From: a bacterium
GTDB taxonomy: Bacteria; Bacteroidota; Ignavibacteria; Kapaibacteriales; Kapaibacteriaceae
Assembly (NCBI GenBank): GCA_034440235.1
Contig: JAWXBR010000017.1
Location: forward strand, 12,566-76,565
Length of the DNA: 64,000 nucleotides
Reading direction: 5' to 3'
Shown: piece by piece, positions 824 through 52,568 of the stretch
Numbering within the stretch: position 1 is the first letter of the stretch
Layout: every line of letters begins with the position of its first letter
Translations under genes and position numbers: made by a program
Notes under the pieces: generated by a model
The model's database searches: none
What the model saw: the letters and a program-made list of their open reading frames with translations, nothing else
What the model was told of the DNA's origin: nothing

Positions 824-1804
824 TCAGGACTCGATAAAAACATTGCGGAATCCTTCTTCTGCTGCAGGCCATGGCCTTTCGAGTGCTCTATCGATTGCGC
901 CGATCATTTCTGCAAGGGTCGACTTCTTCATGTTCTCAACATCGGCTGCTGTTAACACACGGCGTTCAACAAGGGTCTTCGCATACGTTTCGACTGGATC
1001 TTTTTTTGTCCATTCGGCCAGCATTTCCTTCGGCACATACGCATAATCGTCGTGTTCTGCGTGACCTCGCATACGCATCGTAAGTGTTTCGATAATAGAG
1101 GGTCCGTCGCCCGCACGCGCACGCTTTACCGCCCGCGCACACGCTTCGTATACAGTCTCGACGTTTGTACCATCGATAGTCTCGCCGTGTATGCCATAGC
1201 CAATGGCACGATCGGAAAGTTTTGCGCAAGCAAATTCGAGTTCGTTCGGTGTCGAGTATGCGTACCGATTGTTTTCTATGATAAGGACAAGGGGCAACTT
1301 GTGCACCGATGCAAAGTTCAGCGCTTCGTGTACTTCGCCAACCTGTGCGCCACCGTCGCCGATATACGTCATGGCAACACAATCTTCGCCGCGCATGCGT
1401 GCAGCTAGTACAAAGCCTGCTGCCACGGGAATCATCGCACCAAGGTGACTCACATTGCCGTAGATGCGCAGTTTTTCATCTGCATAGTGTCCCGTTCCAT
1501 CCGTCCCGCGCATCTGACTGCCCTCTCGCGCAAGATGATTGACCATCAGTTGGTCGAGGTCGGCGCCAAACACAAAATGTCCGCCAATGTTTCGGTGCAT
1601 CGGAAACAGCACATCGCGTTTCCGATCGAGTGCATAGGCCGAACCAACACTTGTAGCCTCGTTGCCGAGCTGCGAATACACACCACCAAATGCTTTGCCC
1701 TGACGGTACAGACGCAACATGGCAGCGTCGAATTCACGGGCCATGATCATGTACCGTAGAAGCAGAAGTGACTGTTCGGAAGTGGGTCTCAACGTTTTGG
1801 ACAC
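824..1804 (-). CDS. TPP-dependent 2-oxoacid dehydrogenase E1 alpha subunit
   Basis: GDGG-x(n)-ENN TPP motif and RMRGHAEHD loop. Probable GTG start at 1804 after AAGGAAAG. Confidence 0.92.
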   Translation of the reverse strand: MSKTLRPTSEQSLLLLRYMIMAREFDAAMLRLYRQGKAFGGVYSQLGNEATSVGSAYALDRKRDVLFPMHRNIGGHFVFGADLDQLMVNHLAREGSQMRGTDGTGHYADEKLRIYGNVSHLGAMIPVAAGFVLAARMRGEDCVAMTYIGDGGAQVGEVHEALNFASVHKLPLVLIIENNRYAYSTPNELEFACAKLSDRAIGYGIHGETIDGTNVETVYEACARAVKRARAGDGPSIIETLTMRMRGHAEHDDYAYVPKEMLAEWTKKDPVETYAKTLVERRVLTAADVENMKKSTLAEMIGAIDRALERPWPAAEEGFRNVFIES

Positions 1805-2217
1805 GCTTTCCTTACCTCTGCAACAGAGACGGCACCCTTGCTGTTGCCAAACGATGTAAACACGTAGGTAAGCACACATGCAATGTCGTCGCAATTGTAC
1901 TTCTTCGGCATAGGTGCCATTACACCATTGTACACCTTGCCATTCACCGTAATCTTACCGTGTTTGCCGTTCACGACTTCTTTAATAAGCGTGACCTTTG
2001 GTGTCGCTTTGATATAGTCGCTATTGGCAACTGGTGGATAGACCCCAGGCATGCCCTGTCCATTCGGCATGTGACAGGTCTTGCAGTACTCAAGGTACAC
2101 CTTTTTACCCTTGGCCAACGCTGCGGGGTCCGCACCAAAAGCAACAGCGTATGTGCACAAACAGCTGGCGACGATGAGCGAATAAAATCTGATCGAAAGC
2201 ATTTGCAAATTTACCAT
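1789..2217 (-). CDS. monoheme cytochrome c, exported
   Basis: Signal peptide, CKTCH heme motif, GQGMPGVYPP, distal Met in YNGVM. Confidence 0.9.
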   Translation of the reverse strand: MVNLQMLSIRFYSLIVASCLCTYAVAFGADPAALAKGKKVYLEYCKTCHMPNGQGMPGVYPPVANSDYIKATPKVTLIKEVVNGKHGKITVNGKVYNGVMAPMPKKYNCDDIACVLTYVFTSFGNSKGAVSVAEVRKACPKR

Positions 2218-2277
2218 AGGATTGAGAATTAGCCTTGCCTATGTTCGCTCATCGACCTCACAATTCGCGGAAATGCT

Positions 2278-5262: not shown

Positions 5263-5325
5263 ACTAATGTTGCAATTGACGATCAATCGTTAGGTTCGCG
5301 TACCATTCTAATAAACTAGGACCAC

Positions 5326-5962: not shown

Positions 5963-8416
5963 TTAGTATAATAGTTTGTATTTGGCCGGATTTGCCTCAT
6001 GCATCATAACATGCGCTGCATCGAACACATGTTCGGCTTCTGGTTTTGACCAGTAGTTGCCGTCGGTGCCATACGCAGGTCTGTGCTCTGCAGCAGTAAG
6101 AGTACGCGGCGCAGAATCGAGATGGCGATAGCCGTTTTGTTCTTCGAGGATATGACGCAACATGAACGACGAAGTACCCCCTGGGATATCTTCGTCGAAC
6201 ACCATAAGGCGATTCGTTTTCTTGAGCGATTCAACGATAACGTGGTGTTTGTCGAACGGCAAGAGCGTTTGTACATCAACGATTTCTAGATCAATTCCTA
6301 CTGCTTCTAACATTGCAGCTGCATCGAGCGCAACGCGAACACATGCACCATACGTAACGAGTGTAATGTCGTTACCGCTGCGCACAATTTCGGGGACACC
6401 AAGTTCAACGGTGTATTCGCCAATGTTCGACGGTAGTTTTTCTTTTAAGCGATAACCATTCAACACTTCGACAACAAGGCCAGGGTCGTCGCCCTTCAAG
6501 AGCGTCGCATACATGCCTGCTGCTTGCGTGAAGTTTCGTGGCACACATACATGCACACCACGCACAAGATTGATGATGCCAGCCATGGGTGAACCGCTAT
6601 GCCAGATGCCTTCGAGACGATGGCCGCGCGTGCGCACAATCACGGGAGCTTTCTGTCCGCCCTTCGTTCTCCAATGCACCGTAGCAAGGTCATCGCTCAT
6701 GAGCTGCAAGGCGTAAAGGACGTAGTCGAGGTACTGTATTTCGGCAATCGGACGTAGACCGCGCATGGCCATGCCAATCGCTTGTCCGAGTATCGTGCAC
6801 TCGCGAATGCCAACGTCCATCACACGCAGCTCGCCAAACTCCGCCTGACATCCTGCCATGCCCTGATTTACGTCGCCGAGTTTGCCCATGTCTTCGCCAA
6901 ATGCGACGATGCGTTTGTCGTTGCGCATTGCATGCTTAAAGAACGCATTAATAACTTCCGAACCGTTTACCGATGTCGAATCGGCACCGTATTGTGCATC
7001 CGACCCAGCAACGTTCAACGCTGAGCGTCCATCGTCCTCGCAAAACAGATGTGATGCATACAACGGCTTTATGCTCTTGTTATAGGACGTGAACCACGCG
7101 GCAAGGGGCTCAGAGCTCACGGGGCTTTGCACCTGTGCACATATACGAAGTGCTGCATGCACAGCAACCATGATGTCTCGACGGAACGGTTCGCGTATCG
7201 CTGCCAGTTCTTTTGAGCTTGCAGCTATGTTCGATGCAATGTCTGCATGTCCTGTTGTTTGCAGTGTGGCAACAAGTGCATCCAGTTGTTCGATTGCTTG
7301 CGCAATCTCGGCACGTATTGGTGCAGTGTAGGCTTCGAATGACTTTCGTTGAGCGAGACGAGCGGACTCGACTGCTTCACGATCGATCGTATCGAGTTCT
7401 TCTGCCGACGCATATCCTTTTTCGAGAATCAGTGCACGGAATCGCGCGATGCAGTCATACTCTTTCTCCCAGTCCATGCGCTCTGCCGATTTATAGCGCT
7501 CATGCGAGCCGGATGTAGAGTGACCTTGTGGTTGCGTGACCTCAATTACGTGTATGATCTGCGGAACATGTTCTGTGCGTGCTGTTTCGGTTGCCTTCGC
7601 ATATGTAGCAACTAGGTTGGGGTAATCCCACCCTTTCACGACGTGTACATCGTATCCCGAGTTACTATCTGGTGTCCGCTGGAAGCCCCTTAATAGTTCA
7701 CCGATGTTCGACTTTGTGACTTGAAGTTCGTTCGGGACAGAAATGCCGTAGCCGTCATCCCAGATCGAGATAACTGCAGGAGCTTTTAGCACACCTATGG
7801 CATTTACAGATTCCCAAAACATACCTTCGGCGCACGAGGCGTTGCCAATCGTGCCAAACGCAACTTCGTTACCCTTGCGAGTGAACATTGTCATGTCATG
7901 CAGGGCTTCGTTTCCTCTGTACAGACGAGAGGCGTATGCCAGGCCAACCAGACGCGGCATTTGCGACCCCGTCGGTGAGACATCTGCCGAGACGTTACGT
8001 GTTTTCGTCTGGTCGAGCCATTTGCCGTTTTCATCGATAAACCGCGTCGCAAAGTGGCCGTTCATCGACCGACCCGCCGAAGCCGGTTCGGCTTGGACGT
8101 CGGTGTGCGCATAGAGTTGGGCAAAGAATTTCTCGACGCTACTCTCGCCAATGGCAAACATGAATGTCTGGTCGCGGTAGTACCCGCTGCGCCAGTCACC
8201 GGGTTGAAATGCTCGCGCCATGGCCAGTTGTGCCAGTTCCTTGCCGTCGCCGAAGATGCCGAACTTGGCTTTTCCGGAAAGCACCTCACGGCGTCCCAAC
8301 AGCGATGCCTGCCTGCTTTCTACCGCAAGACGGTAGTCTTCGAGGTAGGTCGCTGCGGCATTGGCCAAAGCCTTCGACTTCTTCTTTTCTACAGGAGGTG
8401 CGGTTGTTGACTTCAT
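5963..8416 (-). CDS. fused E1 alpha/beta 2-oxoacid (branched-chain-type) dehydrogenase
   Basis: GKAKFGIFGDGKE, GHSTSGSHERYK, FGED, EIQYLDY, GIWHSGSP: Bacteroidota-type fused E1. Confidence 0.92.
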   Translation of the reverse strand: MKSTTAPPVEKKKSKALANAAATYLEDYRLAVESRQASLLGRREVLSGKAKFGIFGDGKELAQLAMARAFQPGDWRSGYYRDQTFMFAIGESSVEKFFAQLYAHTDVQAEPASAGRSMNGHFATRFIDENGKWLDQTKTRNVSADVSPTGSQMPRLVGLAYASRLYRGNEALHDMTMFTRKGNEVAFGTIGNASCAEGMFWESVNAIGVLKAPAVISIWDDGYGISVPNELQVTKSNIGELLRGFQRTPDSNSGYDVHVVKGWDYPNLVATYAKATETARTEHVPQIIHVIEVTQPQGHSTSGSHERYKSAERMDWEKEYDCIARFRALILEKGYASAEELDTIDREAVESARLAQRKSFEAYTAPIRAEIAQAIEQLDALVATLQTTGHADIASNIAASSKELAAIREPFRRDIMVAVHAALRICAQVQSPVSSEPLAAWFTSYNKSIKPLYASHLFCEDDGRSALNVAGSDAQYGADSTSVNGSEVINAFFKHAMRNDKRIVAFGEDMGKLGDVNQGMAGCQAEFGELRVMDVGIRECTILGQAIGMAMRGLRPIAEIQYLDYVLYALQLMSDDLATVHWRTKGGQKAPVIVRTRGHRLEGIWHSGSPMAGIINLVRGVHVCVPRNFTQAAGMYATLLKGDDPGLVVEVLNGYRLKEKLPSNIGEYTVELGVPEIVRSGNDITLVTYGACVRVALDAAAMLEAVGIDLEIVDVQTLLPFDKHHVIVESLKKTNRLMVFDEDIPGGTSSFMLRHILEEQNGYRHLDSAPRTLTAAEHRPAYGTDGNYWSKPEAEHVFDAAHVMMHEANPAKYKLLY

Positions 8417-8437
8417 AGAACCGCGAAAATACGAAGG

Positions 8438-9031
8438 CTAGCTGTCGAACATGCCTTGTTGGATCGGAGACCCTTCTGAGGCGTCGGCTATAAGGGCCTC
8501 GGCGCGAGTCAGAGTGTCAAGTAAGATGTCGTTAACGATGACTTCGGCAAACTCGCCTCTGTGGCCCATTTCCATTTCGGCGCGGGCCATGCGCAAGGAA
8601 ATCTGATCGTCGGTTTCGGTCTTGCGTTCGCGAAGTCTATTTTCCAAAATCTCCAGTGACGGAGGTGCAATAAAGATGAGGAGCGTGTCTTCGGGGAATG
8701 CATGCAAGAGCGAAAGAGCCCCTTTCACGTCGACGTCGAAGACGACGTGAGCCCCTCTATCGAGGGCCGATTGCACCTGCGAACGCAACGTACCGTAATA
8801 ATGACCGAAGATCTCTTCGTATTCGATAAGGTCGCCACGTTCGATTGATGCACGAAATGCTTCGCGCGTAAGGAAATGATAGTCACGACCGTCAACTTCG
8901 TTCGGACGTTGTCCGCGCGTCGTTGCACTCACGCTGAACTCAAGCGCTGGAAAGCGCGTGAGTAAATGACGTGCTACGGTAGTCTTACCCGAGCCGCTGG
9001 GTGCACTAAGAACAATAAGCTGTTTTTTCAT
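8438..9031 (-). CDS. gmk: guanylate kinase
   Basis: SAPSGSGKTT, SVSATTR, DGRDYHF, YYGT. Confidence 0.97.
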   Translation of the reverse strand: MKKQLIVLSAPSGSGKTTVARHLLTRFPALEFSVSATTRGQRPNEVDGRDYHFLTREAFRASIERGDLIEYEEIFGHYYGTLRSQVQSALDRGAHVVFDVDVKGALSLLHAFPEDTLLIFIAPPSLEILENRLRERKTETDDQISLRMARAEMEMGHRGEFAEVIVNDILLDTLTRAEALIADASEGSPIQQGMFDS

Positions 9032-9076
9032 GCCACGTGTTGCACTTGAATGGACATAAGCACTTGAATGTACATG

Positions 9077-9952
9077 TTATTCTACGTTCTGTACTTGTTC
9101 ACGCATGCGTTCGAGCTCTTCCTTCATTCCGACGACAAGGCGGGCTATTTCTGGGTCGTTTGCCTTCGATCCGATGGTGTTTACCTCCCTATTCATTTCC
9201 TGCAGTAGAAAATTCAGCTTACGTCCGACTGCTGTCTCGTCCTGCATGTACTCGCGAAAGAACTTCATGTGACTTCGCAGCCGTACGCACTCTTCCGATA
9301 CGTCAAGTTTTTCTGAAAGCAGAACAATCTCGAGTTGCAGACGATGTTCGTCGACCACGGCATCATCGACAAGCTGGCGCACGCGTTCGCGCAACCGGTT
9401 GCGTTCGAATGGAATACGTTCGGCCGAGCGGACCTCGATGTCAGCCAGGGCAGTGTCTATTGCAAGGATGCGGTTGTCGAAATCTGCGGTAAGCTCAGAG
9501 CCTTCTTTCTCACGCATCTCATTGAGGGAGCGAAGCGCTTCGACGATTGCTGCTTTTAGGTCGGGCCAAGCGTCCGGACGTTCTGCATCTTCTTCTGGTC
9601 GTGCCATGACGGCATCGAACTTCATAAGCGTTTCGATCGTTACGTCGCCTTCGAGGTGTAGCTTGTCTCGCAATACTCGCAGCGACTTTGTGATACGCTC
9701 AGCAGCTTCTGCATTAAACGTCACCTCTTCATTGGCTGCTGCTGCTTCTAAACGAACGTACACAGAAATCGTGCCTCGCGAAACATGCTCGCGCACGGTT
9801 TCACGAACGTTGAGTTCTTTATTCGCAAAGTTTTTCGGAAGTCGTGTTGTGAGTTCCAGATACCGAGCATTTACGCATCGTATCTCTACAGAGCAGGGCA
9901 AACCCTGCAACATCGATTCGCTCTTGCCATACCCCGTCATGCTTCTAATCAT
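9077..9952 (-). CDS. yicC: YicC/YloC family endoribonuclease
   Basis: MIRSMTGYG start, GRKLNFLLQEMNREVNTIGSK, REQVQNVE end; next to gmk. Confidence 0.95.
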   Translation of the reverse strand: MIRSMTGYGKSESMLQGLPCSVEIRCVNARYLELTTRLPKNFANKELNVRETVREHVSRGTISVYVRLEAAAANEEVTFNAEAAERITKSLRVLRDKLHLEGDVTIETLMKFDAVMARPEEDAERPDAWPDLKAAIVEALRSLNEMREKEGSELTADFDNRILAIDTALADIEVRSAERIPFERNRLRERVRQLVDDAVVDEHRLQLEIVLLSEKLDVSEECVRLRSHMKFFREYMQDETAVGRKLNFLLQEMNREVNTIGSKANDPEIARLVVGMKEELERMREQVQNVE

Positions 9953-42799: not shown

Positions 42800-45067
42800 A
42801 TGCTGCACCAGAATCTCTGGTTCCGAATATCGTTTGCGGCGGCAATTGCTGTGATAACGATGGTTGCATTTGTAGCGGCCGTAGGTGTTGGTGCTGCTAC
42901 CGCAACAGCGCAGAGCGTTCAGGTAAGCAACTGGCGCACATACTCGTCGATGCGTGCCGTTGCTGCGGCCGATGTCGACAGCAAGGGACGCATTTGGGCC
43001 GCCACTTCGGGTGGAGTGTTCGTGTACGACCAGGCCAACGATACCGTTATCGAGTTTCGGAATATTGGTGCGTTGTTGTCCTTAGATGTCACCTCGGTCC
43101 TTTGTGATCGAAGCAATACACGCGTGTTTGTTGGTTGCAGTGACGGCGGATTACATGTAGTTACCGAAGACCTAGTCTGGACGGCAATTACAGACATTAG
43201 ACGTGCAACGCAATACCCACGACGAGCCATTAACGACTTTGCCCTCGATGGGTCGACACTGTACATGGCCACTGGGTTCGGCGTTGTTTCGTACGATGTC
43301 GACAGGAATGTTTTTATCGAGACTGTAGACCGCATTGCTACGATGGGTGCGAAGACATCGGTACACGGCATTACAATGTTTCAGGACTCAATCTGGCTAG
43401 CAACCGATTCTGGTGTTGCCGTTGCTGCGAAAAACGTTCCGACGTTGCGACTGCCTTCGGTTTGGACGTCGCTTTCGACCGCAGCAGGACTGCCACGTGC
43501 GAGTGTGACGGGAGTACGAGCAAACGCAACGAACATCTTTGTGTCTGTCGGCAACGGAGTATTTAAGGCCGACGGTCACACATTTTCGCTGTTGTACGGC
43601 TCGTCCGATCCAATTCTTTCTCTGGCATCGATCAATGGCGAGCTCACGTTCTCCGACAAGAAAGAAGTTCGTACGCTCGACGCAGCATTGCCTGTTACAT
43701 GGCCGGGTCCGCTCGTCGGCCACACAGCTCTAATGCTAAACAATGTTATGTCTCACGTCGCCTTTGTGCAGGATAAATCGATTGCCATTTGGCAGAACAA
43801 TGTATTAACACCAGTCGAAGTCAACTCCCCCATCTCGAATCAGTTCGCAAATCTTGCAATGGATACAGATGGTGGATTATGGGTAGCTACTGATGTCGAT
43901 CCGCCGCGCACCGGCGTTGGTGTTGCGTACTTCAATGGTTCGGTATGGCGAAACTTTACGTCGCAAACGGACGACGCCATAAAGACCAATGCCTGTTATC
44001 GTGTATCGGCCCTAGCCGACGGAACAGTATGGATAGGCACGTGGGGTTCGGGCGCAGTTCGCGCTGTGCGCAACAATGGTGCAGTAGAACTAACGCGTTT
44101 TACAAGCAGCAACTCAAGCCTTGTAGGAATTGCTGTCGACAACAACTACGTACTTGTTGGTGATGTTGCTCTTGATAGAAACGGCAATACGTGCCTTGTA
44201 AACGAGCAGTCGGGCACAAAACTCATGGCGACGATTCGCACAGATGGCAGTGGAACATCATTTGAGAATTGTAGCGATCCGAGAAACAACTTCTACCGAT
44301 CGATTGCAGTAGACGGTGCCGGGAATAAATGGATAGGCAGCCCCTTCGCCAATGGTATTGTCGTTGTGAACGACGACCTCTGCAACATCGTTCGCTCAAG
44401 CAACACGCAGCTTCCGGATAACACCGTAAACGCAGTACGTGTAGATCGGTTGGGCGCAATGTGGATTGGCACCATAAAAGGTGTTGCGGTAATCTCGGGT
44501 CCGTCGGCAATTACCAACACCTCGATTCCATTTCTACGACGCATAACAGCACTAACAACCGTTGTCGTAAACGACATTGCCGTTGATGCACTCAATTACA
44601 AATGGATTGCAACAACGGGTGGTGTGTTTGTGCTGAACGAAGACGGTACCGAAGTACTTGCAACCATCACCGCAGCAAACTCTCCGCTCCTCGATGATAA
44701 TGTCCGTTCGGTTGTCGTGGATGATAAAACTGGCACTGCGTTCTTTGGTACAAGTGTCGGACTCTCTACCGCGCGGACACAAAGTATACGTCCGGTAGAA
44801 ACCTACGCCCTCTCCTTCTCGCCCCAACCATACCGTCCGTCGCAATCTGGTGCTCTCACCATCGACGGCCTTGCAGCCGACTCTGACGTACGCATCATGA
44901 CAATCGACGGCGCTCTTGTCGCAGCTCTTCAAAGCCGAGGCAGGCAAGCCTTATGGGACGGCACAGACGTTCAAGGCCGTTTCGTTACACCAGGCGTGTA
45001 CGTCGTACATGTCGTTAGCGCTTCGTCGAAAGAGTCAGCAGCGGGCAAGATCGTCGTTACGCGATAG
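42800..45067 (+). CDS. porZ: PorZ-like T9SS accessory protein (beta-propellers plus Ig-like C-terminal domain)
   Basis: NWRTYSS start, repeated VD..NYKWIAT blades, NSPLLDDNV, WDG...GVY..GKIVV end. Confidence 0.82.
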   Translation: MLHQNLWFRISFAAAIAVITMVAFVAAVGVGAATATAQSVQVSNWRTYSSMRAVAAADVDSKGRIWAATSGGVFVYDQANDTVIEFRNIGALLSLDVTSVLCDRSNTRVFVGCSDGGLHVVTEDLVWTAITDIRRATQYPRRAINDFALDGSTLYMATGFGVVSYDVDRNVFIETVDRIATMGAKTSVHGITMFQDSIWLATDSGVAVAAKNVPTLRLPSVWTSLSTAAGLPRASVTGVRANATNIFVSVGNGVFKADGHTFSLLYGSSDPILSLASINGELTFSDKKEVRTLDAALPVTWPGPLVGHTALMLNNVMSHVAFVQDKSIAIWQNNVLTPVEVNSPISNQFANLAMDTDGGLWVATDVDPPRTGVGVAYFNGSVWRNFTSQTDDAIKTNACYRVSALADGTVWIGTWGSGAVRAVRNNGAVELTRFTSSNSSLVGIAVDNNYVLVGDVALDRNGNTCLVNEQSGTKLMATIRTDGSGTSFENCSDPRNNFYRSIAVDGAGNKWIGSPFANGIVVVNDDLCNIVRSSNTQLPDNTVNAVRVDRLGAMWIGTIKGVAVISGPSAITNTSIPFLRRITALTTVVVNDIAVDALNYKWIATTGGVFVLNEDGTEVLATITAANSPLLDDNVRSVVVDDKTGTAFFGTSVGLSTARTQSIRPVETYALSFSPQPYRPSQSGALTIDGLAADSDVRIMTIDGALVAALQSRGRQALWDGTDVQGRFVTPGVYVVHVVSASSKESAAGKIVVTR

Positions 45068-45154: not shown

Positions 45155-45237
45155 GCGGAGGTGGCGAAATGGCAGACGCACTACCTTGAGGTGGTAGCGC
45201 CCGAAAGGGTGTAGGGGTTCAAGTCCCCTTCTCCGCA
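45155..45237 (+). tRNA. tRNA-Leu (anticodon GAG), CCA not encoded
   Basis: GCGGAGG acceptor stem, TGGCAGAC D loop, CTACC-TTGAGGT-GGTAG anticodon arm, long variable arm, GTTCAAG T loop. Confidence 0.96.
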
Positions 45238-45249
45238 CACAGTAGTTTT
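45217..45249 (+). repeat. att core, left copy
   Basis: gttcaagtccccttctccgcacacagtagtttt, identical to 50899-50931. Confidence 0.95.
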
Positions 45250-45287
45250 CTAAGATTTGCAGGTCTTACGCTAAACTCTAAACAAAC

Positions 45288-45322
45288 AAGGCGCTTACGG
45301 GTTTTCTCTCGTAGGCGCTTTT
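45288..45322 (+). terminator. element-supplied hairpin terminator after the tRNA
   Basis: aaggcgcttacggg-ttttc-tctcgtaggcgctttt. Confidence 0.55.
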
Positions 45323-45343
45323 GCTTTATTGCATAACATTTTA

Positions 45344-45396
45344 TGCCCTTACTACCCGTTTTGCCCTTACTTTGTTGCCCTTACTTGCCCTTACTT
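45344..45396 (+). repeat. integrase arm-type sites (4 x TGCCCTTACT)
   Basis: Four direct copies upstream of the integrase; two more at the right end. Confidence 0.75.
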
Positions 45397-45448
45397 GTAC
45401 CATTAACGGATATTGGGGTCAGTTCAGAGTAACTACGAGGGTGCTTTT

Positions 45449-46807
45449 ATGGGAATAGCGATACGGTATAGTGCCAGTTTTGAACTAGCGAATCCAAAGG
45501 GAAACAACCGCGGTTCTATTCGTGCAATCATCACACACGCAAAGCAGCGGTTACGCTTCCCGATTGGCCATGATAGGATCGAAGTAGACAAATGGGATAG
45601 CAAGGCGCAACGCGTAAAGGGCCACACTCGCAAGGCAAAGGACGCCAACGAGCGTATCGAGGAGATTCGCAGCACGGTAGATATGTGGTTCGAGCAAGAC
45701 ACACCCGGCCAACTGTCCGAACTTCAGTTTACACTTACGGGCAAGTACCCGAAGAGCGCAACACTCGATTCGAGCGGAACACCCGTTGCACCGGGCAAAG
45801 GCATAGAGGCATTATTCAGCGCGTACATATCAGACAAAACGAAACCGGGTAAAAAAGTTATCAGCATTGCGACGGTTAAGGGATTCGAGACAGTACAGAA
45901 AGCGTTAGTGCAATTCGAGCAAGGTACACGTACCACCCTCTCCCCTGCCAGTTTCGCAATGAATACGCGTCAACAAGCACACGACGCAAAAGAACTAGAG
46001 CAGTCCATATCGGAGTGGCTCGCAACGCAACACGTCCGACAGGACAAGAACAAGGGAGCGAAGGGGCTGAACGACAATACACGTTATCGTGCCATGCGGA
46101 GACTTTCAACCGTGCTAAAATGGTCAGAGGAACAGGGCATTGCCGGGGCAAACAAATTGCACACTCGATTTGCGTATGGCAAGGTTGAAGCATACGGACA
46201 AGTTGCGCTAACCGATGCAGACATAACCGCAATCGAGGCACTAGAACTTGAACCGCAAACCCAAATGTGGCACACTCGCAATATGTTCTTGCTAGGTTGT
46301 CGAACCGGCCTTCGCGTCTCCGATTGGCACAAGGTAGACCCTAAGCGATGGAAAGAGGAACACCAAACCATACCCACAACCAAAACAGGCGGAACGGCAA
46401 CCGTTGTGCATACCGACGAAGTGGTTGCAATTCTACGACTGTACGAAACGACGGGACTACCGACGTTCCTACGACCGAACAACAATGGGAATATCAATCA
46501 CAACGCAAAGCTAAACTTGTGGATTAAATCGTTGTGCGCAATGGCAGGACTTACGCGTCCTACCGATAAAATCACCAAACAGAACGAACGCAAGCAAGTA
46601 ACGACAGTACCCTTTTACACCTTGGTTTCGACACACACCGCACGTCGGACGTTTGTCACGCTCGCACGTCTTAGCGGCCTTTCGGACGTGCTTATTGCGA
46701 TGCAATCGGGGCACGAAGACCTAGCGACACTAAAAACGTATACAAAGGCAACAGCGGATGATCTGGCGGCAATGGTAAAGGGCAACACAAAAAGGAATAC
46801 GAAATGA
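45449..46807 (+). CDS. int: tyrosine recombinase/integrase
   Basis: Arm-binding N-terminus (KWDSKAQRVK..N), TGLRVSD, KT, HTARRTF, SGH, Y catalytic residues. Confidence 0.95.
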   Translation: MGIAIRYSASFELANPKGNNRGSIRAIITHAKQRLRFPIGHDRIEVDKWDSKAQRVKGHTRKAKDANERIEEIRSTVDMWFEQDTPGQLSELQFTLTGKYPKSATLDSSGTPVAPGKGIEALFSAYISDKTKPGKKVISIATVKGFETVQKALVQFEQGTRTTLSPASFAMNTRQQAHDAKELEQSISEWLATQHVRQDKNKGAKGLNDNTRYRAMRRLSTVLKWSEEQGIAGANKLHTRFAYGKVEAYGQVALTDADITAIEALELEPQTQMWHTRNMFLLGCRTGLRVSDWHKVDPKRWKEEHQTIPTTKTGGTATVVHTDEVVAILRLYETTGLPTFLRPNNNGNINHNAKLNLWIKSLCAMAGLTRPTDKITKQNERKQVTTVPFYTLVSTHTARRTFVTLARLSGLSDVLIAMQSGHEDLATLKTYTKATADDLAAMVKGNTKRNTK

Positions 46808-47718
46808 GTTTAGCATACACCGACCCGGCTGGATTTGAGGCAATGGTTCTGCTTTTGCCCATGGAGAACCGTGCGTTACGCATTGCAAGGGACGTATCGG
46901 ACCTATGCTTCGAGTTGGCGGAAGCTAAACAGCAGCCCGGCTTGCACGATCCCAGTTTGATAAACTTCGCATACGACCATCCCGAAGGTGTGGCTCCGAA
47001 TCGGTTGTATATGCAGTTCGCTTTGCTTCGAGCATACTGTGATGAAGATGGCGCGTCGCTTACCGGGTTTGATCGTATGAAGGTACGACACACGATTCGG
47101 CACTACGTACGAATGTTCAATGCCTGCCAATACGCGATAACCTTGAATATCGAGCAATGGGCCGCGGTGGGCTTCCCCGACGATTGGACGCCTCCAGATC
47201 AAACAATCACACTTGCTTCCATAGGTCCACATCATCAAGGTGAAAAACCGCTCGTGATAGGCAGCGAGACACAACAGGCGATTTCAGATGAGATGGACGT
47301 TTCAATTGGAACCGTCAACCTGATCGTGAACGCTCCCAATTTCAATCTTCAGCATTCACCAACCCCTAGCCCCTTTGAAAAGTTGAAAATTGAAAGTGAT
47401 GCGATGGACGAAGCAACACCCGGCGCATATGCAAATCCACAGTTGAAAGTGTCGCTAGCAGCGTTGTGTGTTTGGTGGAAGCAGCGGGACCACGTTTACA
47501 TGAATTCGGGAGGATTTGACGGATTGTACTCTTGGGTCGTCGAACAACAGATACTTAACTCCCAAGGCACCACCATTACGAAGGCCTCACTCAACACAAA
47601 GTGGAACGGAAGCAGCGACGTTGGTACTACACCTGAGGGAAAGCGTCGAATTGCACCTTGGTCCGACCACTTTGCCAATCTAGACAGGCGTTGGCCACCT
47701 TCTAACGAAACGACCTGA
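46804..47718 (+). CDS. hypothetical protein containing a 53-aa segment shared with the helicase C-terminus
   Basis: 304-aa ORF, ATGA-coupled to the integrase. Confidence 0.7.
   Translation: MSLAYTDPAGFEAMVLLLPMENRALRIARDVSDLCFELAEAKQQPGLHDPSLINFAYDHPEGVAPNRLYMQFALLRAYCDEDGASLTGFDRMKVRHTIRHYVRMFNACQYAITLNIEQWAAVGFPDDWTPPDQTITLASIGPHHQGEKPLVIGSETQQAISDEMDVSIGTVNLIVNAPNFNLQHSPTPSPFEKLKIESDAMDEATPGAYANPQLKVSLAALCVWWKQRDHVYMNSGGFDGLYSWVVEQQILNSQGTTITKASLNTKWNGSSDVGTTPEGKRRIAPWSDHFANLDRRWPPSNETT
47269..47427 (+). repeat. 159-bp direct repeat, copy 1
   Basis: Matches 49279-49437 with 4 mismatches by eye. Confidence 0.93.
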
Positions 47719-47801
47719 AAAATTCCAACGCGTTGTCAACGCGTTAACCTTACCACATCCTTGCATTCTTGCCTTTGAGTTTCATAACAAAAGGAAAGAT
47801 C

Positions 47802-48092
47802 ATGCAACAGACAGTGGTCATCGCGACCGAAGAAATTCTCGACTCGATAAAGCAAACGATCCAACAAGAGTTTGCGCTCGCTAGAAACCATAGGCCTAAC
47901 GCCCTCACTTCTAGCACTTCGGTAGCCAAGGCTCTGACCTTCGCAGACGTTGCCCGACGGCTTCGCATATCAGCCCCGACCTTACGGGCCATGCTCAAAC
48001 GAGGAGACATAGAGGCCTTTCGCGTTGGCTCGAATTGGCGTATCACAGAAGATGCTCTAACCACGTACCAAAGTGGCAAGGGGGCAGCATGA
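47802..48092 (+). CDS. excisionase-family HTH DNA-binding protein
   Basis: LTFADVARRLRISAPTLRAMLKRGDIEAFRVGSNWRI; AAGGAAAG upstream. Confidence 0.88.
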   Translation: MQQTVVIATEEILDSIKQTIQQEFALARNHRPNALTSSTSVAKALTFADVARRLRISAPTLRAMLKRGDIEAFRVGSNWRITEDALTTYQSGKGAA

Positions 48093-48307
48093 CAACCGAA
48101 GAAATGGCCCAATTGTTTGTTGCTTCTGTGTTAGCCGGAGACATTGAGACGGTACTGCGCTTGATAAACGAGCTTATGGCTCGTATACGAGCGCTCGAAG
48201 GGCGAATACGAATGATGGAAAGTCGGGTTGTCACTGCCACCAATGGAGACCGTGACCGAGGCACGAGAGCCGATCTTTTGAAGCGTTATGGGAAGCCACT
48301 CCGATGA
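48089..48307 (+). CDS. small coiled-coil hypothetical protein
   Basis: ATGA overlaps at both ends; heptad LINELMARIRALEGRI. Confidence 0.65.
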   Translation: MTTEEMAQLFVASVLAGDIETVLRLINELMARIRALEGRIRMMESRVVTATNGDRDRGTRADLLKRYGKPLR

Positions 48308-49557
48308 GTGAGCCGACACCGAACTATGTCGAACAATTCGACGCGTTCCCACAAAGCGCAAAGGATGCGATTGTCAACCGCGCACTCGATATGGGCATTG
48401 GTTCTATGGAGCCTGCGCACGGCATCGAAGTGTTACACAACCTTGGTGACGTTCGGCAGCACTGCAAAGCAATATCGTGGGCGTGGCCGCATTGGATCGG
48501 CAATGGCTTACCGACGCTGATTGTTGCTGCACCGGGCATCGGAAAAAGTACGTTGGCGTTATGCCTCGCACACTGTGTGTATGCGGGCACACCGTGGCCG
48601 GATGGTACACCCAACACCACAACACAAGGGCAGACGCTATGGATCGAAACGGAAGCGGGACATAGGATGCACGTAGACCGTGCCGAACGGTTTTGCATTC
48701 CGGACGAAGCCGTCGTGTTCGCAGCCAGGTTCGATGAGACTGTATCCTTTACAGACAAGGAATTTTGCGAACGCGTCATGACCTATGCGTTGCATGATAC
48801 CATACGCATGATTGTCATTGACTCACTTTCGGGCTGGAGCAGCGGAGACGAGAATAGTACAACTGCGGGTGATCCTATGAAGTTTACAGGGTTGCTAAGT
48901 CAGCGTTCGGGAAAGCCAACACTTGTTGTGCATCACTTGTCGAAGGTTGGTTGGTCGTCCGATGTAGACAACCCGCCGACCCTCGCCAATGTACGTGGTG
49001 CAGGCGCAATCGTACAGCACTCTCGCATTGTAGTGGTGATAGATGCACCATTCAAGGACGAACCCGACTTGCTACGGCTGACCGTCATCAAAAACAACTA
49101 CGGAAGTGAACGACCGAGTATTGGTGTTCGACTCCAAAGCAACCGACTAGAAGCGTTCGACCTTCGATCAGCAATTCGCGAAGCTTCACAGTACAACGCA
49201 GACAACCCGAGCCAATCGGCAAAGGCCAAGCGAGCAACCCGAGATGCTCGTATCCGAGAATTGTATCAGCAAGGCGTCACACAACAGGCGATTTCAGATG
49301 AGATGGACGTTTCAATTGGAACCGTCAACCGGATCGTGAACGCTCCCAATTTCAATCTTCAACATTCACCAACCCCTAGCCCCTTGGAAAAGTTGAAAAT
49401 TGAAAGTGATGCGATGGCCGAAGCAACACCCGGCGCAATCGACTTTTACAGCGAACCTCTCCGTATTCCGGGGCTGAATGACACACCCAATCCGTTCGAC
49501 GTCGTAGACACGTTCGATACGCAGCGCAGACAGTACAGCAATCAAGGGGTGAACTAA
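48304..49557 (+). CDS. AAA_25/RepA-like helicase with C-terminal HTH
   Basis: Walker A AAPGIGKST, Walker B MIVIDS, VVHHLSK, RGAGAI, KNNYG; HTH RDARIRELYQQGVTQQAISDEMDVSIGTVNRIV. Confidence 0.85.
   Translation: MSEPTPNYVEQFDAFPQSAKDAIVNRALDMGIGSMEPAHGIEVLHNLGDVRQHCKAISWAWPHWIGNGLPTLIVAAPGIGKSTLALCLAHCVYAGTPWPDGTPNTTTQGQTLWIETEAGHRMHVDRAERFCIPDEAVVFAARFDETVSFTDKEFCERVMTYALHDTIRMIVIDSLSGWSSGDENSTTAGDPMKFTGLLSQRSGKPTLVVHHLSKVGWSSDVDNPPTLANVRGAGAIVQHSRIVVVIDAPFKDEPDLLRLTVIKNNYGSERPSIGVRLQSNRLEAFDLRSAIREASQYNADNPSQSAKAKRATRDARIRELYQQGVTQQAISDEMDVSIGTVNRIVNAPNFNLQHSPTPSPLEKLKIESDAMAEATPGAIDFYSEPLRIPGLNDTPNPFDVVDTFDTQRRQYSNQGVN
49279..49437 (+). repeat. 159-bp direct repeat, copy 2
   Basis: Matches 47269-47427. 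Confidence 0.93.
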
Positions 49558-50036
49558 TGCCCAGACCCCTTACAACCGTGAACGAACGGCTCGTTGAAAC
49601 GCTCGCAAAACATCACCTTACGACCAAGGAAATTGCCTACGTCATCGGCTGTTCGGTTACGACGTTGAACCATCGTTTCCGTTCAACTATTGACCGTGGA
49701 AGGGCTTTGGCGGTCGTAAACCTACGAGAGATGCAATGGAAATCAGCGATGCGGGGCAACGTCCGTATGCTCATACACTTAGGAAAGCATACGTTAGGGC
49801 AGACAGAACAGGGCTTGCGGACTCGCACCGACTACGCTAGTACCATTGGCGACTCGGAGGGCATCGTGCTGGATCGGAGGCGACAACGAACCGACAAACC
49901 GGACAACGAAGCGGACGAAATGACAGTTGCACCCCTACCGACAGAACCGGAAGCACCGCACAAAACCCCGCAAATACTGCCTTTTGTTACATGGGAAACA
50001 GAGGAATACGAGCCAATGGTTGCCAATTTTAAGTAA
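49557..50036 (+). CDS. HTH protein resembling a phage terminase small subunit
   Basis: TTKEIAYVIGCSVTTL HTH followed by LREMQWKSAMRGNVRMLIHLGKHTLGQ; TAATG-coupled to the helicase. Confidence 0.6.
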   Translation: MPRPLTTVNERLVETLAKHHLTTKEIAYVIGCSVTTLNHRFRSTIDRGRALAVVNLREMQWKSAMRGNVRMLIHLGKHTLGQTEQGLRTRTDYASTIGDSEGIVLDRRRQRTDKPDNEADEMTVAPLPTEPEAPHKTPQILPFVTWETEEYEPMVANFK

Positions 50037-50070
50037 GTGGTTATATTCTATACACTTACGTTTTTTGCAC

Positions 50071-50098
50071 CTGTTAAATAACGTATGTTATGTAAACT
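50071..50098 (+). other. dif-like XerC/D recombination site
   Basis: CTGTTAAATAA-CGTATG-TTATGTAAACT, 11-6-11 layout. Confidence 0.7.
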
Positions 50099-50204
50099 AG
50101 AAACGAGATTCATTGCTTAATGGCGGGTTGCTCACAATTAGGTCAAGTCCTGAACAAGCCCGCCAAAAAAAGTATCGAGTTTTTCATATCATTCTAACTT
50201 GCAT

Positions 50205-50394
50205 TGTGCTAGTCCCCGTTTGTTCGTAGCGGGACTCGTGATTGTCAGTTGATAGAAAAGTTTGTGAGTTGTGCAGTCGATGATAGAACTTGAGGCAACG
50301 ATATGTTGTTCTTCCGTAAGTACTCAGCAGGCGATACGTAGCCGACCCCGCTGTGAATGCGTTTGTGATTGTAGAACTGCACCCATCGTGTGAA
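50205..50394 (-). pseudogene. IS3-family transposase 3' remnant with probable terminal repeat
   Basis: 50394-50245 translates FTRWVQFYNHKRIHSGVGYVSPAEYL...*, followed by ...GGGGACTAGCACA end. Confidence 0.75.
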
Positions 50395-50396
50395 AA

Positions 50397-50693
50397 TTAT
50401 GCTGTTCCAAGAATAATATTCCGTGCCGTCTCAAGATTAGCCTCTTTTGCCCTAGCGTTAGCACGGACAATTTCGATAACCCACCAGATCATTAATCCGC
50501 CGCCAGTCACGATATAGAGTAACCACATACCGATCTTACCGAAATAGAGGAATGGGAGACCAAAGATTGCCAAAACAAGCGCAACGGTTCCGCTCTTTTT
50601 CTTGCTAGACCATTGCTGGTATACCATACCTTGTTTTTCAGGCGTCAACTTGTTGAAGTGTGGCATTACTTCCATTGGTAAATCTGTATACAT
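50397..50693 (-). CDS. TM2/NINE-domain membrane protein
   Basis: KKKSGTVALVLAIFG..FLYFGK.G..LLYIVTGGGLMIWWVIE. Confidence 0.82.
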   Translation of the reverse strand: MYTDLPMEVMPHFNKLTPEKQGMVYQQWSSKKKSGTVALVLAIFGLPFLYFGKIGMWLLYIVTGGGLMIWWVIEIVRANARAKEANLETARNIILGTA

Positions 50694-50836
50694 ATACTCA
50701 CCCTCGTTGTGGTTGGAAGACTGCATTCTGCAAGTCTCGAAAATCCTAACGAGAGCAAACTAGCAATTTGAAGCGCGTTTTGAAATAGCCAGTAGTTGGT
50801 ATTTCCTCCGCTGTCAGAGTGCAACCATCTGAGTAG

Positions 50837-50862
50837 TTGCCCTTACTTTGTTGCCCTTACTT
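50837..50862 (+). repeat. integrase arm-type sites, right end
   Basis: ttgcccttactttgttgcccttactt, identical to 45361-45386. Confidence 0.75.
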
Positions 50863-50898
50863 CCGACGCAACGTGTAAACAGGCGCTTTCGAGCGGTC

Positions 50899-50931
50899 GT
50901 TCAAGTCCCCTTCTCCGCACACAGTAGTTTT
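50899..50931 (+). repeat. att core, right copy (duplicated tRNA 3' end)
   Basis: Identical to 45217-45249. Confidence 0.95.
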
Positions 50932-50970
50932 TACGGGTTTCTAGGTAATGGGTTAAAGTCTTACGAATCA

Positions 50971-51005
50971 AGGCCTTGCGTCAAATAGGATGCAGGGCCT
51001 TTTTT
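50971..51005 (+). terminator. intrinsic terminator after the right att site
   Basis: AGGCCTTGCGTC-aaatag-GATGCAGGGCCT-TTTTT. Confidence 0.65.
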
Positions 51006-51851: not shown

Positions 51852-52568
51852 CTACTTGCGACGCAGCTTTAGGGCACCCCAAAAGCGATCGCGCAGTTGA
51901 CCTTTTAGATTAACATCTTTTGGATCGAGTAGTTTACCGCCAAAGCGAAACGCAAAAACGGGATCGAAGTTCAGCACGACGTTGGTGGTGCTTGATGCCG
52001 TGACTTCAATGTATGGTTCGAATTTTATCCAGAGGTTTGAAGTCTGATCGTCGGTCCAAGTAAAGTCTTCAGGTACACCGTTTACATACAGGGTACCGTC
52101 GACGATAAGAGTGATGCGCTCAGGTTCGGCAAACGGACCAAATGTTGCGTCGCTTCTGTAAGTCAAAGCTTCGTTGCTATTGAATTTGTGCATCTCAAGC
52201 TTAATCTTTTCATAACGCCCCACTGGGATTGGTGTTGAAAAGATGGTTGAGACCTTGTTACGTGTGAAATCGATAACTGCAGGACCTACCTTTACGTCCT
52301 TACCCTTGTTGTCATCTTCCCCATCTTCTGCTGTGTGCAGTTTGATACGGGAAATAAGGATGCGGGTACGATTAACACGCAAGCTGTCTATGACGCGAAA
52401 GCCATCAACACTAGGATCTGACTGCTCACCTGCTACAGTAACCGTGTTCGATGATACTTCTGTCTCCATTACTAAACGAGGTTCGTCGTTAGGGTCTGTA
52501 CCGTTACAAGATGACAGAAATACAAGTGCGGTGAGTGTTACAACCAATGCTAATAATTTGCTGGACAT
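51852..52568 (-). CDS. lipoprotein (DUF4382-like)
   Basis: FLSSC lipobox; IPVGRYEKIKLE and VVLNFD motifs. Confidence 0.72.
   Translation of the reverse strand: MSSKLLALVVTLTALVFLSSCNGTDPNDEPRLVMETEVSSNTVTVAGEQSDPSVDGFRVIDSLRVNRTRILISRIKLHTAEDGEDDNKGKDVKVGPAVIDFTRNKVSTIFSTPIPVGRYEKIKLEMHKFNSNEALTYRSDATFGPFAEPERITLIVDGTLYVNGVPEDFTWTDDQTSNLWIKFEPYIEVTASSTTNVVLNFDPVFAFRFGGKLLDPKDVNLKGQLRDRFWGALKLRRK

Follow-up and report, generated by a model that had tools for sequence, protein, structure and literature searches.

Among the closest described relatives of the element dealt with in this work are the phage-inducible chromosomal islands (PICIs), for which a core of five components has been described, viz. 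an integrase, a regulatory component (alpA, merR or stl), a primase-replicase, a capsid-morphogenesis component and the small terminase subunit (TerS), with most PICIs (Type B) possessing four of these (PMC10085698). In the account given there, more than 99.9% of the PICIs are from Proteobacteria or Firmicutes, no name beginning with Bacteroid is mentioned in the main text, and 93% of the P4-like satellites are from Enterobacteriaceae (PMC10085698). Another group of this kind, the PICMIs (from phage-inducible chromosomal minimalist island), carries a gene, iolg, which is described as overlapping int by ATGA and as needed for excision (PMC10803314). The subject of the present work is an integrative element of 5,682 bp in a 64,000-nucleotide stretch of DNA (positions 12,566 to 76,565 of contig JAWXBR010000017.1, GenBank assembly GCA_034440235.1) from a bacterium of the family Kapaibacteriaceae; this whole stretch is referred to below as the window, and positions are those of the window. 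In order, the element contains genes for a tyrosine integrase (int), the product of open reading frame (ORF) 2, a helix-turn-helix (HTH) protein of the HTH_17 family in the position of an excisionase (xis), a 72-aa protein, an AAA_25 helicase and a TerS-like protein (ORF6), which are followed by a terminator with an inverted repeat, the remnant of an insertion sequence (IS) of the IS3 family and a gene for a TM2-domain protein. Judged from its sequence, the element is, with a probability that we place slightly above even, a minimal PICI/PICMI-like phage satellite. This reading best accounts for four observations taken together: a TerS homologue is coupled here to a putative replication helicase; the island that holds the pair measures 5.7 kb and has no further phage gene; ORF6 has been kept while its neighbouring modules were swapped; and bounded islands with this build are met again in other phyla.

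Site-specific integration and a small terminase homologue

The single tRNA gene that ARAGORN detects in the window is that for tRNA-Leu(GAG) on the plus strand, and the first copy of an exact 33-bp direct repeat, GTTCAAGTCCCCTTCTCCGCACACAGTAGTTTT, begins in its T-arm, the second copy lying 5682 bp further on (Table 1). In the whole assembly (3.04 Mb in 71 contigs) this core is present in two copies, both of them at the ends of the element. Past the exact core the repeat extends for 76 nt at 78% identity, and both of its copies finish in a hairpin with a T-run; on account of this extended repeat, with a hairpin in each copy, the element supplies its own tRNA 3' end and terminator. An arm-type motif, TGCCCTTACT, occurs four times inside the left end and twice inside the right end, all copies sharing one orientation, and in the predicted circle all six would fall within about 200 bp of the core. 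Seven copies of this motif are present in the window against 0.05 expected, a number reached in none of 100 shuffles, and six of its nine copies in the genome are located inside the element. As in integration of the lambda type, a core repeat flanks the element, with one copy in the target gene, and in the predicted attP the core has arm repeats to its left and right. Further, in two other genomes of the same family (G002 and G005) the PorZ gene, the tRNA-Leu gene and the genes of the right flank are collinear and carry no insert, the distances from the tRNA to the right flank being about 1.07 kb and 0.78 kb, as against 7.5 kb and 6.6 kb for the same intervals in the window. In another species of the genus (G001), an integrase gene is again located at the same tRNA; the first 156 residues of its product, after which the contig ends, are 67% identical to the integrase of the window, and a different repeat, TTGCCCCCCGT, occupies the place of the arm motif. 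Since an integrase N-terminus of 67% identity is accompanied by a different repeat, the arm repeat co-varies with the integrase, and the exchange of TGCCCTTACT for TTGCCCCCCGT is what would be expected of arm sites matched to the integrase N-domain. Of the remainder of the G001 element nothing is seen in that assembly by matching to the other parts of the window element, except for the IS. The integrative nature of the element is thus about as certain as sequence alone allows, and the att repeats in tRNA-Leu, their spacing and the arm sites, all of which were noted in a preliminary description of this locus, were found as described there.

By sequence comparison, residues 2-85 of the ORF6 product are homologous to the small terminases of phages. 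The protein matches the TerS family phrog_309 (3.8e-5), and a tblastn search with it against phage records matched eight of them, three of which were examined. In Pelagibacter phage HTVC112P the match is gp20 (1e-9), whose gene lies 1.4 kb before that for the large terminase subunit (TerL); in Psychrobacter phage pOW20-A it is PSYG_00040 (6e-5), whose gene overlaps the start of TerL and which is itself a phrog_606 TerS over its full length (2e-13); and in phage DSL-LC06 it is a protein annotated as a DNA-packaging protein (4e-3). All three of these proteins match phrog_309, and an alignment of ORF6 compared with them by hhalign gave a probability of 99.5% and an E-value of 4e-22 over 84 columns with 38% identity, so that the TerS similarity which the preliminary description ascribed to the ORF beginning at 49557 is upheld. 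The likeness to the TerS proteins of PHROG families 606 and 309 consists of an N-terminal HTH with two long helices and the motif ...GN..MLIWLGKQ.LGQ, whereas ORF6 differs from them in that it is not adjacent to a TerL gene and is longer at its C-terminus by about 60 residues, the last of which are conserved. This end, a peptide of the form ILPFVT...MVANF[KR], is kept in a homologue of 52% identity and is absent from the prophage TerS proteins compared with it. Close homologues of ORF6 are two in number among 5.8 billion clustered proteins, viz. P0001 (93%) and P0002 (52%). The look-alikes of ORF6 by a protein language model are small Uroviricota proteins (score 0.96). Structure provides weaker evidence than sequence: the model of its N-domain, with a predicted local distance difference test (pLDDT) value of 80.5, consists of an HTH followed by two long helices, and its fold matches in BFVD, five of which have E<=0.001, come from uncultured phages and are again small proteins, some of the lower ones being named TerS.

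The genomic surroundings of the ORF6 family point in the same direction. Two genomes from the host's own class, G133 and G409 (the two best of the four in which a profile search detected relatives), have the homologue upstream of a Terminase_6C TerL gene and a Mu-type portal gene, with genes for protease/scaffold, major capsid and cement proteins divergent on the opposite strand. Homologue and TerL are 45 bp apart in G133; in G409 the distance is about 2 kb and spans one 415-aa ORF of no family. In a wider scan, in which one genome per species was taken, 134 relatives were collected and 80 loci were kept, and in 50 of the 80 a TerL gene is present within 2.5 kb downstream of the ORF6 homologue, 34 of these being recognised by tblastn with four TerL queries and 16 by Pfam. 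The Pfam cases come from the 46 other loci: a plus-strand ORF of 200 aa or more stands within 2.5 kb in 35 of these, and 16 of the 35 have TerL domains; in seven further loci an unassigned ORF of 392-512 aa occupies the place of TerL, and 11 loci are without such a large ORF, seven of which have less than 1 kb of contig remaining. As a separate observation, a number of loci (L021, L022, L048, L050, L051, L053, L055-L057, L059, L061, L062, L065, L075-L077, L080, L084 and L092) contain a compact and highly conserved module, with tblastn E-values as low as 0, in which TerS, TerL and the Mu-type portal are on one strand and the major capsid gene is divergent. The protease and cement protein genes are also divergent in L021 and L022, the two of these loci that were scanned with Pfam. 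The module is recorded from Ignavibacteriota and Bacteroidota and also from a Planctomycetaceae metagenome-assembled genome (MAG) and a Sulfuricurvum MAG. This module could be a widespread prophage, a unit resembling gene transfer agents or a capsid-forming satellite.

In the element itself ORF6 is without a neighbouring TerL, a feature which marks satellites. Profiles for Terminase_6C, TerL_ATPase, Phage_portal and Phage_capsid gave no match in the host assembly, which is 98% complete, each of them being positive in 3 to 5 of 14 control genomes, and the TerL, portal and major capsid proteins of G133 and G409 gave no tblastn match in it. Because phage contigs are often lost from metagenome bins, these packaging genes should be spoken of as not found with the queries used, and not as absent.

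Variants of the element and analogous islands

The syntenic relatives which the preliminary description had named as a check on its proposal have been found, both close to the element and in other phyla. A metagenome contig (L033) contains an allele of the helicase-HTH gene with 31% identity, a 72-aa ORF and an ORF6 of 92% identity, together with 75 conserved nucleotides behind it. Beyond this conserved block its DNA is unrelated; a single lipoprotein-like gene there precedes a partial tRNA-like end and the beginning of a further integrase gene, and no TerL is present. After the variant element (L033, 2564-2797), the partial tRNA-like 3' end is followed by a leader and start codon resembling those of a tRNA-adjacent integrase gene on contig C44 of the genome that also carries the element of the window (G000), an arrangement suggestive of tandem arrays in which different islands occupy one tRNA. 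On a contig from metagenome run X3, an int of about 98% identity is accompanied by 329 nt that replace ORF2 up to the xis region, and by a divergent helicase region.

Further, an AAA_25 gene together with an orphan TerS-like gene is present in six of the 80 loci (L046, L047, L058, L070, L079 and L085), all of them from other phyla. Five of the six belong to the 12 loci in which the first large ORF is not a TerL, and L079 has no large ORF downstream. In L047 (Lentisphaerae) an exact 49-nt repeat, its copies 8828 bp apart, marks an island in tRNA-Thr with the order int, two small ORFs, a DnaB_N plus AAA_25 gene, the TerS-like gene and a gene for an MmeI-type enzyme. In L070 (Alphaproteobacteria) the order is tRNA-Ser, int, an ORF overlapping it by 4 nt, a small ORF, AAA_25, a DUF3037/HipA-like pair and the TerS-like gene. 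Among the other cargo at orphan TerS-like loci are GmrSD in L085 and, in L045, a NACHT protein. In tblastn searches with the AAA_25 queries, matches were seen in five loci without a detected TerL and in none of the 50 TerL-linked loci (8-kb flanks), although the relatives counted here are not independent of each other. In a tree of 45 TerS-like sequences the nine orphans require seven label changes, and 54 of 500 shuffles are as low. As seven is no fewer than in typical shuffles, the orphans are scattered among the phage TerS proteins and do not form one lineage. P0001 and 37 of the 80 loci are not in this tree; stop codons in the matched stretch were the reason for two of the 37, and the others were left aside to keep the alignment small. 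Such a distribution fits repeated capture from phages, and it is a tentative proposal, to which we give somewhat less than an even chance, that there is a cross-phylum class of satellites of 6-9 kb with a tRNA-targeting integrase, an int-overlapping ORF, a Xis-like HTH protein, an AAA_25 helicase and an orphan TerS. Its members would acquire TerS from local phages again and again, equip it with a C-terminal hook for TerL and be packaged as concatemers in unmodified helper capsids; their cargo would be a single gene, or a small number of genes, of defence or membrane type.

The variants also bear on the possibility that the element is the stump of a prophage, in which int, xis, the replication genes and terS would form the left-hand portion of a temperate phage, everything from TerL through the tail and lysis genes having been lost in a deletion mediated by IS3. 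The IS3 transposase remnant stands directly behind ORF6, exactly where TerL is expected, an insert is duplicated in frame within ORF2, the G+C content drops to 42-46% over positions 50000-50999, and the TM2 protein matches phage families; the remnant and the duplication in particular are compatible with decay. However, L033, which has no IS remnant, still combines the helicase, the small ORF, ORF6, one cargo gene and a partial tRNA end with no TerL, and due to this the pairing of helicase and TerS without TerL is not a product of the IS remnant in the window. The island in L047 is likewise intact, with exact ends and the same order. In the element of the window the att core is exact, all six plus-strand genes are open, the replication gene is joined to ORF6 by a codon overlap without the late-gene regulators usual in phages, and no other phage gene remains. 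An origin as a prophage remnant is therefore regarded as improbable.

The reading as a satellite must also be weighed against the possibility that the element is a tRNA-targeting integrative and replicative cargo island, of the kind of the tycheposons and defence islands, which is not packaged by means of a terminase subunit of its own and in which ORF6 serves as a phage-derived HTH regulator, e.g. a sensor or a repressor; an island of this kind would be transferred by vesicles, transformation, generalised transduction or mobilisation. A preprint on tycheposons describes cargo of this sort as well as PICI-like siblings with which modules are swapped (10.1101/2020.12.28.424599). In genome G016 (contig C98, locus L032, 2814-14943), a tRNA-Phe gene is followed by an integrase of 32% identity, a 251-aa ORF overlapping it by 4 nt and sharing the C-domain of ORF2, and an HTH_17 gene, and this module heads cargo consisting of a YgjP-like peptidase, type I restriction genes (HsdR, HsdS and HsdM) and an OLD-family ATPase with a UvrD helicase (Gabija-like). 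A second island in the genome of the window is on contig C71 of G000 (locus L001, 831-9665), where an HTH_17 gene (9312-9665, minus strand) and an AAA_25-HTH gene (7829-9040, minus strand), the product of the latter being 35-36% identical to that of the window, adjoin an MmeI-type restriction-modification gene (831-3674) and a gene for a TIR-domain protein (3894-5282). An NhaA gene flanks this island, and an integrase gene is not in view. Neither of these islands has a TerS-like gene, and as the left module heads a defence island in G016 and the HTH_17 and AAA_25 genes stand beside defence genes on C71, the backbone alone is no proof of a satellite lifestyle. Several of the islands with an orphan TerS-like gene also have cargo of the defence type (MmeI, GmrSD, NACHT). 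In addition, the structural matches of ORF6 are to generic HTH regulators: a wide fold search gave generic HTH domains at Z 4-6, searches of PDB sequences with the ORF6 alignments gave generic HTH matches only, and Foldseek searches of PDB with both ORF6 models gave nothing at E<=0.001. Among solved TerS folds, that of Sf6, the sole match spanning the entire ORF6 model, reached Z 4.7 over 84 residues and 2ao9, the top Foldseek match, an E-value of about 0.5, neither of which is significant. The homology of ORF6 comprises an HTH plus helices, and a regulator role could equally be served by it.

The absence of a TerS-like gene from the G016 island, the defence neighbours on C71, the fold results and the signs of decay at the IS remnant and in ORF2 all weigh against a satellite, and so do several further results. 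The element is rare, relatives of ORF6 being seen in four of 400 genomes of the phylum and relatives of the helicase in two of 40 related genomes; a search of genome contigs with the helicase alone gave no confirmed relative. The helicase has no primase domain and no primase partner in the element. No relative was seen when a collection of viral contigs was searched with the ORF6 alignment, and the whole element, when compared with phage records by blastn, was without a DNA match; a helicase alignment matched one weak locus among the viral contigs (L034, 26% identity). In the tree the group of ORF6 is made up of itself and P0002, without any TerL-linked gene that would point to a helper phage. 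Contigs from the likely source run show no excess of depth, with values of 12.2-17.4 over most of the element and 14.4-14.9 in the flanks; at the IS remnant and the element's right end the depth rises further. In four metagenome runs, out of nine with parts of this stretch, the contigs end at the 33-bp repeats, where attP and attB joints could not appear, and they are uninformative either way. A contig of 326 nt and depth 4 from run X2 joins 49386 back to 47377 via a 31-nt overlap in a 164-nt repeat of the element; it is likely to be an assembly path, a real recombinant or tandem form being possible.

Against a cargo island with a regulatory ORF6, however, are the position of the ORF6 family before TerL in 50 of 80 loci, the 92% identity of ORF6 in L033 where the adjoining helicase has been swapped for an allele of 31% identity, the translational coupling of ORF6 to the replication gene, the scatter of the orphans among phage TerS proteins, and the fact that no relaxase and no other gene for transfer was found among the ORFs of the element. 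On balance, this explanation is considered unlikely, although a real share of probability remains with it.

Gene organisation and the proposed cycle

The features of the locus are collected in Table 1. The gene order int, ORF2, xis, small ORF, AAA helicase, TerS-like gene and TM2 gene, given in the preliminary description, holds, as does its statement that no capsid, relaxase or primase is visible, since no ORF of the element matched these families in Pfam, PHROGs or NCBIfam. Its "dif-like site" is not supported. The IS3 remnant, the 164-nt duplication and the stop/start overlaps that chain five of the six plus-strand genes were not reported in it.

Table 1. Features of the tRNA-Leu(GAG) locus and of the element integrated in it (positions in the window)
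Feature	Positions	Strand	Remarks	Basis
tRNA-Leu(GAG)	45155..45238	+	integration target; 3' 22 nt fall within att core and are element-supplied	ARAGORN and sequence
attL core	45217..45249	.		exact 33-bp repeat
Terminator-like hairpin	45288..45321	+	element-carried, behind rebuilt tRNA; counterpart of native hairpin 50970-51001	
Four arm-type repeats TGCCCTTACT, P arm	45344..45395	+		
Tyrosine integrase	45449..46807	+	Arm-DNA-bind_5-like N-terminus 4.4e-4 (weak, below cut-off)	Phage_integrase 2.9e-7; phrog_1 4.3e-21
ORF2, 304 aa	46804..47718	+	overlaps int by ATGA (46804-46807); position of PICMI iolg	no known family
164-nt internal repeat, copy 1	47264..47427	+	inside ORF2	
HTH_17 excisionase-family DNA-binding protein	47802..48092	+	Xis/AlpA position	HTH_17 1.7e-11; TIGR01764 4.1e-10; excisionase PHROGs
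72-aa ORF	48089..48307	+	ATGA overlaps with xis and helicase	no family
AAA_25 (RepA/DnaB-like) ATPase, C-terminal HTH	48304..49557	+	weak HTH_23	AAA_25 9.5e-21; phrog_239 primase/helicase 7.6e-13
164-nt internal repeat, copy 2	49274..49437	+	spans helicase HTH region	
ORF6	49557..50036	+	residues 1-85 TerS-like HTH and helices; 86-159 acidic, predicted-disordered tail	
Hairpin and T-run behind ORF6, then imperfect inverted repeat about 50068-50100	50031..50111	+	end of block conserved with L033	
IS3-family transposase gene, 3'-end remnant	50205..50393	-	85-92% identity to IS copies on C11, C59	rve_2, phrog_157
TM2-domain membrane protein, cargo	50397..50726	-		TM2 6.8e-7; phrog_32725 9.4e-10
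Two arm-type repeats TGCCCTTACT, P' arm	50838..50861	+		
attR core	50899..50931	.	with partial tRNA 3' end	exact 33-bp repeat

The integrase ORF is open from a TTG at 45413, and the ATG at 45449 agrees with the G001 homologue; the HTH_17 ORF is similarly open from a TTG at 47769. ORF2 is a mosaic, with residues 1-145 resembling P0009 (72% identity), residues 155-209 being a copy, of 96-97% nucleotide identity, of the helicase HTH region which arises from the 164-nt segment duplicated in frame, and residues 210-274 resembling the C-termini of P0011 and P0012; this C-domain is the part held in common with the int-overlapping ORF of G016 (2e-5). In the ESM Atlas its best score is 0.93, to unnamed clusters, and the Atlas model is of low confidence. 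For the HTH_17 protein no Phage_AlpA match is listed at E<=0.1, and the sole PADLOC match on the element is of the HTH of this xis-like protein to mad1. The primase/helicase family phrog_239 is matched by the AAA_25 protein over the helicase part only, and a relative of this protein, P0004, carries a fused RepB_primase; the AAA_25-HTH protein is a putative replication helicase and origin binder. Besides the int/ORF2 overlap, the xis and 72-aa genes and the 72-aa and helicase genes share ATGA junctions and the helicase and ORF6 are joined by TAATG, and due to these overlaps the four genes from xis to ORF6 look like one translationally coupled operon.

The block directly behind ORF6 includes a hairpin that was recognised by eye and is missing from the output of the hairpin scan, and it is a candidate terminator plus protein-binding site, for which a role as pac or ori would be a guess. 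The imperfect inverted repeat in it, which is conserved with changes in L033, was the basis for proposing a dif-like Xer site, through which the element would depend on the host XerC/D for its resolution or integration. A site of this type has 11-nt arms around a spacer of 6-8 nt and resembles the host dif, and in the present comparison, made without the host's own dif, the arms are about 4 nt apart and match each other only with an indel. Further, the half-site is not enriched in the genome, and the element's own integrase, core and arm sites explain integration. Dependence of the element on Xer recombination is considered very improbable.

On the reading of the element as a satellite, the following cycle is proposed. 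The integrase would recombine the 33-bp core to give a circle, with an attP in which the six arm repeats surround the core, and excision would probably be aided by the ORF2 protein and the HTH_17 Xis/AlpA-like protein. The AAA_25 helicase-HTH protein may then drive replication with the help of the host primase and polymerase. The orphan TerS-like protein would bind the DNA of the element, the conserved block behind ORF6 being the candidate site, and its conserved C-terminal peptide may recruit the large terminase of a helper phage, so that concatemers of the element would be packaged in the capsids of the helper. After injection, the element would re-integrate in tRNA-Leu(GAG), and the tRNA would be restored by the 3'-end copy which the element carries.

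Outside these functions, the window shows a gene for a PorZ-like type IX secretion protein to the left of the element (42800-45067) and one for a DUF4382 lipoprotein to its right (51852-52568), and on the basis of these neighbours the host is placed in the Fibrobacterota-Chlorobiota-Bacteroidota (FCB) group. The IS3-family element of which the last 189 bp are left in the island is also found at two or more other places in the same genome, G000 (C11:145224-145408 and C59:40668-40856, one of them at a contig end), and in G001.

Comparison with known satellites and islands

In a full-text search of the literature for satellites or PICIs in Bacteroidota/Bacteroidetes, as judged from titles and the beginnings of abstracts, no such element is described, and in one of the matched papers the passages dealing with satellites name no Bacteroidota host. 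If the element is a satellite, phage parasitism of this type is extended to an uncultured FCB lineage of microbial mats, and a searchable signature is provided by an orphan TerS of the ORF6 family beside an AAA_25 helicase and an integrase. Islands in other phyla, some of which have defence genes, are already retrieved by this signature. With its six backbone genes it would also be a very small system in which to ask for the minimum needed to hijack a terminase. If the proposed cross-phylum class is real, satellites would with it be recognised for the first time in the FCB group and in Lentisphaerota, Armatimonadota and Planctomycetota, and PICI-like parasitism would be far wider than is reported by the current profile-based finders. 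If the element is not a satellite, it is a clean example of a tRNA-targeted island backbone in which integration, replication and cargo modules are swapped.

Of the five PICI components described for SatelliteFinder in PMC10085698, four have a clear or candidate counterpart in the element: the integrase and TerS are clear, and the regulator and replication gene, which belong to other families, are candidates. The order of integrase, HTH regulator or excisionase, replication module and TerS at the end of the backbone, together with accessory genes, is also as described for PICIs (PMC10085698), and so are the site-specific integration and the lack of other phage structural genes. However, at 5.7 kb the element is smaller than the median PICI of 9.5 kb given there (PMC10085698). 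Its regulator is of the HTH_17/excisionase family and not a demonstrated homologue of AlpA, MerR or Stl; its replication gene encodes an AAA_25 helicase without a primase; its TerS is of another family and has a long acidic tail; and no gene for capsid morphogenesis was matched in it by Pfam, PHROGs or NCBIfam. The placement of its host in the FCB group is a further difference.

The PICMIs of Vibrionaceae, as characterised in PMC10803314, resemble the element in their size of about 6 kb and six or seven genes, and in the succession of int, an ATGA-overlapping gene, a small regulator and a replication gene, the likeness between ORF2 and iolg being positional only. As both the element and the PICMIs are without capsid-remodelling genes, packaging as concatemers would be the natural expectation. 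PICMIs differ in that they integrate beside fis, whereas the element is found in tRNA-Leu(GAG) beside a PorZ gene, and in that their core is described as int, alpA and a primase with no terS homologue (PMC10803314), whereas the element has a helicase and a TerS-like gene.

With the tycheposons of Prochlorococcus, in the terms in which the preprint presents them, the element shares a tyrosine recombinase that targets a tRNA, partial tRNAs at the ends, and an excisionase with a primase/helicase module (10.1101/2020.12.28.424599). The preprint further describes cargo-carrying elements and PICI-like, terS-bearing siblings that swap integration and replication modules (10.1101/2020.12.28.424599), and the islands of the window, C71, G016 and L033 form a comparable set here. 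The differences lie in the host phylum and in size, tycheposons being described as similar in this respect to PICIs, for which 10-20 kb is given (10.1101/2020.12.28.424599). Set apart in these respects by the descriptions of the named families, the element is best regarded as a relative of PICIs, PICMIs and tycheposons and not as a member of any of them.

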